Shown here piece after piece: positions 25,948 through 28,900 of a stretch of DNA of 64,000 bases (position 1 is the stretch's first letter; each line of letters opens with the position of its first letter). The notes beneath the pieces are model-generated. The model saw only the letters and a list, made by a program, of their open reading frames with translations. It was not told where the DNA came from and made no database searches. A program made the translations under genes and the position numbers. Source of the DNA: Euglena gracilis (Eukaryota); NCBI GenBank assembly GCA_039621445.1, contig CP154954.1, positions 2,356,001 to 2,420,000 on the forward strand, in the 5' to 3' direction.

Positions 25948-28900
25948 ATGGCCTCCGCCGTCGGCTCCATTGCCGCCACAGCCCCCGCCGCTGCCGCCGC
26001 CGCTGCCGCCATCCCCCACACCACCGGTGGCGCGGCGGTGTGGACGGCCCCAAGCCCGCCGTTCCTCACGCCCCGCGGCCAGAGCTTGCTGACCAACGAA
26101 ACGCCCTGGGCCGTAGCAGAGGGCTTGTTTCAGTCCAACCCGTTTTGTATTGTGTTGAAGACTCAGGGGCAAAAACGTTTCTCAGTTGATTTGCGGTTTT
26201 CTTCAACTCATTTCAGGTTTACTTTTGTCAGTTCGGTTATTTTTTGTTAATTTGCGTCGTTCCCGAGGTCCAATGTTGAGTTGATCCTCCTCTCTTTAAA
26301 CCTTGTGCGTTGAACGCCATCTAGATTTGGGTGCCGCATGGGGGCCATTGGTGTGCCCGGGGCTTGCGACTCAGTCCCCAAGCACATCTTCCACCAGCAT
26401 TTTCCACCAGCTGCCCCGACCTGTGGCTTCATATGCCACAAACCATTTCGTTCGACCTGCACGAGACCCAGGAGGGTTCTTGCTTCCACGAGGCCCTCTT
26501 GTCCTCATTTTGGACCGCAAGCAATTTCCAAGTGATTACTTTTGCTCAAAAGTACATCATCCTACCCAAAAGCCAAAAGCCCAGGTTTATGCGCAATTCA
26601 GAGTAAAACAGAATGCATTTTTTTTGTCAGACCCCGGCAAGGAAACCCTTCAATATCAGGGGATTTTCACCGAAACATGAAAGCTATATTTTTTCCATTT
26701 CTGTTTTAACAACGGGGTGTGTGGAAGGTCTGCCTATGAGAGCACAACCTCTCGATTTTTTCTCGGGTTGGGGCCGGTGACACCATGGGTTCTTCGTCCT
26801 TCACCCACCCACCCACCCACCCACGCACCCACACGCGCGCGTGCACACCCGCCCGCCCTCACGTACGCACGCACGCACGCACGCGCACGCACACCCACAC
26901 CCACACCACACCCACCCCCCCACCCCCCCCCACGCACACCACACACACACACGTGCACGCGCGCACACACACACACACATGCACCACACGCACACACAAA
27001 AGCTGATTTAAAGATGACCCCATGTGGATTGTCCGGGTGGTGGTGTGGGAACAAATTGGAATGGATGTGGGTTCCTGCTGAAGCTGTTCTTGTTGTGCAA
27101 TGACAATTCTAAGAGATCCAAAAAATTCAAAAGGGTCCAAGAGATGGGAGTAGCTCAGGGGGTGGGATCTGCATCACCACCCCAGGCAATTCATCCCTCC
27201 GCAGAGTTGAAACCCCAAATAAAAAACTCACCCAGAATATTTACGGAAAATGAATTCTAAAAAATGAAAATTTTCTATTTTCGATATTTTTTTTGCATTC
27301 ATTCATAAAACGTTTCCTTCAGCCATTCCCAATCGGAGGGGACATGTGGGGGGTGGGTGGATATGGTTTGGCACCCAACATGAAGGGTCTACCATTGGAG
27401 TGTCAACATTAAAGGTCGTCGATGCAGTAAATGAGTTGCGTCTCTTCAATGCCTTTGGGAAGTTACCACCAGGACCTTGGCAAAGTCCTCAACGCTGAAT
27501 TGACTGCCAACGGCTTCCGGTGTGTGGGGGGCAGGGTTTGATATAAAGAGGGCGTACATGGTTTAGGGGGGGGTGTCCCCCCCACCCCCCCCCCCCTCCT
27601 GGCCCGCAGGGGGGGGGGTCCGGACCACCCCCCCCCCCACCTGCCAGGGGGGTCCGGACCGACCCTCGGGGGGGTTCCCGGGACCCCCCCAAAAAGGGTC
27701 AATTTTTTCCTCCGGCGCTTTGCGCCGAAAATTTTTTGCATTTTTGGCACATTTTTGCCCCAAAAGTGCCCAAAATGGCACTTTTGGTCGTTTTGGGGGG
27801 TCAAAAATTTTCGGTCACCTGGACCGCGCCACTGTTTAGGTGGGGGGGTGTCCCCCCCACCCCCCCCCCTCCTGGCCCGCAGGGGGGGGGGGTCCGGACC
27901 CCCGCCACCTGTCCTTATATCGAACCCTGGTGGGGGGTGCGGATGCCCAAGGCTCACCCCTACCCGGCGCTGCCATCATCCTCCTGCCGCCGCCACTCCT
28001 CGCCGGCCTCCTCCATGCACTCCCAGGCAGGCTGGATTTTGAGGCGAGGCCAACCTCACCACGGGGGGGGGGGGGCTTGCCCGGGCAGGCACTCCAAGGC
28101 ACCAGAGCCGAGCCCGGCACATGGCCAAAAGTACCTGAGCACTTGGCCAAGGCACTGGCGCCAGACATACCAGATTCCCAGAAAGCCCATTTTGGGGGAT
28201 TTTTTGACCCATGCCCATGCAATCACTCAGTCACTGGCCGACTCCCCCCCCCCTGGAAGGTGGGTGACTGGTTTTTTTTCAGAGTGACTGGTTGTTTTTT
28301 TGCCCGGACCCCTCCCCCCAGGGGGAGGGTCTGGGAAAAACCACTTAAGCGACCCGGCGCTGAAGGCGAGGAAAAAACTTTTGGGCCTTTTTTTGCATGT
28401 TTTTGTCTGGATTCCAGAGTGGCTGCCCCCTCCAGCGGGGTAGTGACTGACTGGTTTTCTGAAGAAGTGAGTGACTGGTTTTTTGGAAGAGTGGAAGTGA
28501 CCCCCCCCCCGGGGTCGGCAAGAAATTGCATGCCTATGACCAGGCAGCCACCGACCCCCCCCCCCTCCTTGGGGGTAGTGCCTTGCCTATCCAGGCTCTC
28601 CGGGGCACTCCGAGACCGCCCTCCCCCTCTCCCTTGGGGTTGGTCCAATCCAGCCTGGCCCCGGGCCAGCCTGGGGTCCGTCTCTTCCTTGGCGAGGGCG
28701 TCAGTCCCGTCCCCCCTGACCATGGTTCGCTCGCGAAGAGGGTTGGCCGCAGCCGTGCGTGTAATTCCAACGAAGGTTCAGGGGGGGTCGGCTGTGGTGT
28801 GTGTTTGGCCGTTGTCTGCCGTTTCCAACCCTTTCACTGCTCACAGGGTGCTGCATACCCGATCTGCATCCTGCTGCATTTTCATGGATTGTTTGTTTTG

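Follow-up and report, generated by a model that had tools for sequence, protein, structure and literature searches.

A hAT-like transposable element within a nonconventional intron of a Euglena gracilis PDZ-domain gene, and related elements that coincide with introns

The PDZ-domain gene and its exon map

We analyzed a 64,000-nucleotide stretch of the Euglena gracilis genome (assembly GCA_039621445.1, contig CP154954.1, positions 2,356,001 to 2,420,000 of the forward strand), referred to here as the window, in whose own coordinates all positions are given. The stretch contains a plus-strand gene for a PDZ-domain protein and, within that gene, a 398-bp MITE (miniature inverted-repeat transposable element) at 27532-27929. 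It is highly probable that this element is a non-autonomous, hAT-like MITE which inserted, with an 8-bp target site duplication (TSD), into the pre-existing nonconventional intron 2 of the gene and leaves passively with that intron. The features on which this reading is built are collected in Table 1.

Table 1. Coordinates of the exons, introns and MITE-like elements discussed; a slash before the last base marks a splice junction.
Feature	Position in window	Strand	Details
Exon 2, PDZ gene	26380..26465	+	..STSSTSIFHQLPRPVASYATN(H/R)FVRPAR; P0001 map
Nonconventional intron 2, PDZ gene	26466..27991	+	1526 nt; acc-CAGGAGG...CCTCCTG-ccgcc/G; junction solution; contains the family-B MITE
Left TSD copy	27524..27531	n/a	gtgggggg; 8/8 direct repeat
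Family-B MITE, hAT-like	27532..27929	n/a	398 bp; terminal inverted repeats 14/15
Right TSD copy	27930..27937	n/a	gtgggggg; 8/8 direct repeat
Exon 3, PDZ gene	27992..28024	+	33 nt; (G)HSSPASSMHS(R); P0001 map
Nonconventional intron 3, PDZ gene	28025..28662	+	638 nt; agg + family-C MITE (28028-28657) + gcccc/G; register N3-CAG..CTG-N5/G
Nonconventional intron 6, PDZ gene	30230..30645	+	416 nt; acc + CAG...CTG element (30233-30640) + gaccc/G; TSD GACCCACC/GACCCGCC, 7/8
Nonconventional intron 3, P4-ATPase gene	16584..17193	-	610 nt; agt-CAGGTTTCTATAC...TTATATCGAACCCTG-gcatc/G; 3' end is an exact family-B terminal inverted repeat
Family-B deletion derivative	25221..25345	n/a	125 bp; TSD ttggggac, 8/8; 5' of the PDZ start codon
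Family-B copy	41077..41514	n/a	438 bp; TSD cctgtcgg, 8/8; within GT-AG intron 13 of the PDZ gene

Splicing was followed at the protein level only, using proteins predicted from transcriptome assemblies. An exon-like open reading frame (ORF) at 32048-32203, rich in GC at third codon positions (GC3), served as search bait and matched two such euglenid proteins, P0001 (EukProt EG_transcript_2003, 809 aa, PDZ family PF17820) and P0002 (EukProt GGOE01019065.1.p1, 787 aa, PF13180). Residues 1-633 of P0001 map collinearly to the plus strand from 25948 (Met1) to 53105 in 23 blocks, and 617 of the 621 mapped residues are identical (99.4%); the differing residues of the genomic copy are H74, N150, A193 and R196. 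Residues 634-809 of P0001 were not located in the window. Junctions were determined with a solver that enumerates all donor and acceptor pairs reproducing P0001, which settled 21 of 22; the one at intron 8 was solved later with a looser setting.

The intron types of the gene show a strong polarity from 5' to 3', the first eight (introns 1-8) being nonconventional, that is non-GT-AG, and the next fourteen (introns 9-22) GT-AG. For nonconventional introns, Nomura et al. 2025 defined the code 5'-N3CDG-/-CH'GN5-6/R by means of knock-ins in E. gracilis (PMC12501133). In one slidable register, PDZ introns 1, 2, 3, 6 and 7 match 5'-N3-CDG...CH'G-N5/R; introns 4 and 5, although likewise not GT-AG, fall outside the code. 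Intron 8 (32198-33533) has CAG and CTG ends, with spacers that by our own reading are 3 + 4 = 7 rather than 8 nt. Just upstream of it, the genomic copy departs from P0001 at two residues.

The junction between exons 2 and 3 has a sole solution, 26465 / 27992, of the form N3-CAG..CTG-N5/G, and reads ..VRPAR/GHSSPASSMHS. The same join is present at the protein level in P0002 (..VRPAR/GYSSPAS..). Because the junction falls at these two positions, the MITE and both of its flanks are intronic. From the end of the MITE to the start of exon 3 there are 62 nt.

The element at 27532-27929 and its removal from the transcript

The perfect 8-bp TSD, GTGGGGGG, directly borders both ends of the element. Its terminal inverted repeats (TIRs), left cagggtttgatataa (27532-27546) and right ttatatcgaaccctg (27915-27929), are 15 nt long, complementary at 14 of 15 positions, and begin with CAGGG. 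Over 288 bp the element shares 92.4% identity with the copy at 41077. A TIR pattern, CAGGGTTYGATATAA, matched the window eight times with up to two mismatches, compared to 0.22 matches expected, and none of 100 shuffles attained eight. Similarly, a scan of the window for CAG...CTG pairs whose TIRs match at 10/12 or better and whose flanking 8-mers match at 7/8 or better found eight elements, compared to 0, 0, 0, 1 and 0 in offset controls, in which the right 8-mer was read at five shifted positions. The MITE and its TSD are real, far beyond chance, and an earlier note on this DNA, prepared from the letters alone, had described the 398-bp element, its TIRs and the TSD gtgggggg just as we found them.

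Family B, to which the element belongs, is represented by three copies plus related TIRs, a count that covers this one 64-kb window. The earlier note had placed the other two copies in non-exonic DNA, and this was borne out: the copy at 25221 sits approximately 600 bp upstream of the PDZ gene start codon (25948), and that at 41077 lies in GT-AG intron 13. The family occurs in several copies and appears to lack a long specific ORF. The properties that suggest the hAT superfamily are the 8-bp TSD, the short TIRs starting with CAGGG and a target bias. Specifically, the TSDs of nine elements have T at position 2 in seven and A at position 7 in six (our own count), which matches the hAT target-site consensus nTnnnnAn. 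The consensus for the start of hAT TIRs is YARNG. Family C, a second family in the window, differs in beginning with CAGGC, and its assignment and that of family B to hAT are provisional.

The earlier note had assigned the element a different role, in which it splits a coding exon (..FRCVG/GADAQ..) and is itself the intron, removed without a scar as 27529-27934. The peptides quoted for this model can be read from ORF 27431..27541 and ORF 27840..28937, the frame stays open over the virtual junction, and the ends match N3-CAG...CTG-N5/G under the published code (PMC12501133). However, P0001 is reproduced only by the junction at 26465 / 27992. Exon 3 reads HSSPASSMHS, in a frame other than that of the open frame ..LLPPPLLAGLLHAL, which is consequently not the frame of the PDZ gene; P0002 agrees, and both proteins place the two flanks in the intron. 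A protein query taken from the frame of the earlier note (27930-28100, +) scored none of 414 candidates, which is weak evidence. Open frames are also abundant on both strands near the element because of runs of G and C. The ORFs that pass through the element resemble artefacts of these runs. We consider an exon split at this position extremely unlikely. The interpretation of the 27532 copy as an exon-interrupting intron fails because the flanks are not exonic, the very finding by which the earlier note had proposed to judge it.

A separate candidate in the same region was a minus-strand terminal exon, ..AWECMEEAGEEWRRQEDDGSAG followed by a stop, at 27963-28055 (-), which had been suggested by a GC3 scan and the ORF list. 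It was rejected, as it had 0 matches among 1.84 billion representatives and as the P0001 map assigns the region to plus-strand exon 3 and intron.

With both flanks intronic, excision of intron 2 would carry the element passively out of the pre-mRNA and leave the coding sequence unaffected. The 27532 copy itself is an ordinary insertion within an intron. It does bear the same end signal as the nonconventional introns: together with its TSD it reads ggg-CAG...CTG-gtggg/g on the plus strand, which is the full 5'-N3-CDG...CH'G-N5-6/R signature. What sets it apart is its position nested in an intron, as it is not itself an intron of the mature transcript. With the 3-nt spacer, CAG, CTG, 5-nt spacer and following purine of the code (PMC12501133) all present, the element might in addition be cut out alone (27529-27934) as a nested intron, for instance in the form of a circular RNA, either ahead of removal of the whole of intron 2 or in its place. 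Such nested excision is compatible with passive loss in intron 2, and we regard it as rather doubtful. In the minimum-energy RNA fold computed for the element plus flanking sequence (-255 kcal/mol, z -4.96), the two TIRs are unpaired with each other, and G and C runs pair instead.

This unpaired state is a point against nested excision and one against our own account of the element, although the fold as such neither backs nor refutes either; some further points also weigh on that account. The hAT label was derived solely from the length of the TSD, the start of the TIRs and the target consensus, and no candidate for an autonomous partner with a hAT transposase was noticed in the ORF lists of the window, for which no transposase family search was made. 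Alternative isoforms of the PDZ gene may exist, and the transcript-derived proteins possibly come from another strain or allele than this DNA. In addition, the reading frame of the genomic copy is broken by 1 nt with respect to P0001 at 53079-53081, between ..GQLAR and HFEALRAQN.., where the blocks overlap by one base. This break, near 53079, could be an assembly indel or could reflect a non-expressed allele or paralogue, or a pseudogene. If the P0001 transcripts came from another copy and the present one were silent, the processing of this DNA could not be deduced from them. The frame break and the four amino-acid differences in 621 residues speak for that possibility. Against it stand the 99.4% identity over 23 blocks, the solution of 22 of 22 junctions and the lack of other breaks among the mapped blocks, and a lone indel of the homopolymer type is a common assembly error. 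We hold a silent copy to be improbable, and retain the reading of the element as a MITE inside intron 2.

Introns that coincide with MITE-like elements

Elements of this kind coincide with entire nonconventional introns elsewhere in the window. PDZ intron 3 consists of a family-C MITE and the two spacers (Table 1). Approximately 230 nt at the 5' end of this element and 90 nt at its 3' end align with the family-C copies at 7660-7952 and 47041-47418, whose TSDs match at 8/8 and, by our own count, 6/8, respectively. The middle of the element is a nested repeat of approximately 310 nt. This GTGACTGG-rich repeat (28215-28530) recurs at 29861-30100, in intron 5. Intron 6 likewise consists of an element and its spacers, and the interior of this element is related to family B.

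The second gene with such an intron encodes a P4-ATPase. An ORF at 19125-19304 (-) matched P0004 (EukProt EG_transcript_907, P4-ATPase, 1130 aa), of which residues 988-1130 are encoded here by six minus-strand exons lying between 19280 and 12464. Three of the five introns in the window are GT-AG. Intron 3 ends at its 3' side in an exact 15-nt family-B TIR (16589-16603) and has CAGGTTTCTATACGA at its 5' end, which matches at 11/15 by our count, and an internal stretch of 40 nt is an 85% match to family B. Intron 5 has CAG...TTG ends in the N3/N5 register. No exons encoding residues upstream of 988 turned up in the window, 19281-25900 included, in a search with exact blocks of 8 aa or more; this copy of the gene may be truncated, or the upstream exons may be short or diverged.

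PDZ introns 3 and 6 and P4-ATPase intron 3 all conform to N3-CAG...CTG-N5/R. The proposal that removing 3 nt, the element and 5 nt restores the mRNA, which the earlier note had made for the 27532 copy, does not hold there, and its geometry is found in these three introns instead. Examined for introner-like behavior in this one window, the 27532 copy is no intron, family B is present at P4-ATPase intron 3 (TIRs 15/15 and 11/15), and family C is present at PDZ intron 3. A family-B-type element thus appears to act as a nonconventional intron at 16.6 kb, not at 27.5 kb.

Remnants of TSDs were sought at the junctions of the introns in the N3/N5 register by comparing the five exonic bases plus N3 with N5 plus the three exonic bases that follow. 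Out of eight positions, PDZ introns 1, 2, 3, 6 and 7 matched at 1, 4, 5, 7 and 1, respectively, and ATPase introns 3 and 5 at 4 and 5. For random pairs of 8-mers from the window, the probability of at least seven matches was 0.002, of at least five 0.037, and of at least four 0.127. Five of the seven register-defined introns reached at least four matches, for which our binomial estimate is ~5e-4 on a small sample that covers a single window. Repeats at the junctions could alternatively stem from microhomology on which the splicing machinery itself relies. Perfect 8-bp duplications flanking the non-intron copies, however, show transposition to be what generates the 8-bp repeat.

These observations bear on a broader proposal, namely that the nonconventional introns of euglenids are insertions of hAT-like MITEs. 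As the spacers of 3 and 5 nt sum to the 8-bp TSD, splicing would remove the transposon together with exactly one TSD copy and restore the mRNA that existed before insertion. We see the chances of this general claim as evenly balanced. Under the proposed mechanism, a MITE landing in a transcribed exon would be recognized by the nonconventional splicing system, its CAG and CTG ends together with 3 and 5 nt of duplicated target would form the required signal, the mRNA would be restored, and the intronic halves of the TSD would decay afterwards. That the ends and TSD of the 27532 MITE form a complete intron signal would follow if, as we infer, such MITEs are the raw material of these introns, with descent running from MITE to intron. 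The window can be read as a series from young to old, starting with 8/8 TSDs in intronic and intergenic copies and continuing with introns at 7/8, 5/8, 5/8, 4/8 and 4/8. The idea of a MITE origin is supported by three neighboring introns.

In E. agilis, 71.8% of all introns are nonconventional (PMC12501133). Nomura et al. 2025 describe intron origins as still unclear and note that 84.4% of E. agilis introns have direct repeats, introns that they set aside; the main text of that paper nowhere uses 'TSD', 'target site duplication' or 'hAT' (PMC12501133). The hypothesis of a MITE origin goes back to Milanowski et al. 2014, according to whom euglenid genomes had not yielded any transposable elements (PMC3935182), and it has been proposed since then without an identified transposon family. 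A 2024 review already draws CAG/CTG as TIRs and places TSD-like repeats at the junctions (PMC11282704); in the text of Gao et al. 2024 the hypothesis is only cited (PMC11170887). Our literature search, which covered the text of papers, turned up no publication in which a euglenid MITE family is named or the 3 + 5 spacers are equated with an 8-bp hAT TSD.

PDZ introns 1, 2, 3, 6 and 7 and ATPase intron 3 resemble the published euglenid nonconventional introns in fitting N3-C(A/T)G...C(T/A)G-N5/purine, in being without GT-AG and in having inverted-repeat ends. Whereas for the published introns a MITE origin is a hypothesis (PMC3935182, PMC12501133), the window holds repeat families with perfect 8-bp TSDs. 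It supplies families B and C, which carry these duplications in non-coding DNA and whose relatives coincide, in two genes, with entire nonconventional introns. The register of the introns in the window is that found necessary by the knock-in experiments, so the hypothesis of a MITE origin becomes testable genome-wide, and the window is a useful, testable lead on intron origin.

The proposed origin resembles that of introner elements in Micromonas and Aureococcus, the subject of work by Huff and colleagues in 2016, in which insertion of a DNA transposon with its TSD reportedly creates a precisely removable intron. In those introners, the spliceosome is said to use GT/AG sites partly supplied by the TSD. 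In contrast, the introns described here have a 3 + 5 nt register around CAG/CTG.

Other elements and features of the window

Six more CAG...CTG MITE-like elements with TSDs of 7/8 or 8/8 are present at 2908-3285, 7660-7952, 10596-11075, 12636-13028, 31114-31827 and 49376-49650. Their TIRs are CAGGCTTTTGCT (with the variants CAGGCAATTGCT and CAGGCTTGTGCT), CAGGCTGT or CAGGGATTTTTT. None of the six coincides with an intron boundary; the two placed relative to genes, at 31114-31827 and 49376-49650, lie within PDZ introns 7 and 20, respectively.

Two ORFs lie downstream of the last mapped PDZ exon, one at 53639-54049 (-), similar to the C-terminal part of an integrase with a chromodomain, and one of 1123 aa at 59009-62377 (+). 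They may represent a retrotransposon inserted into the following intron. Long microsatellites of the (CA)n / (CACC)n type were observed at 3441-5173 and at 26802-26998, the latter within PDZ intron 2.

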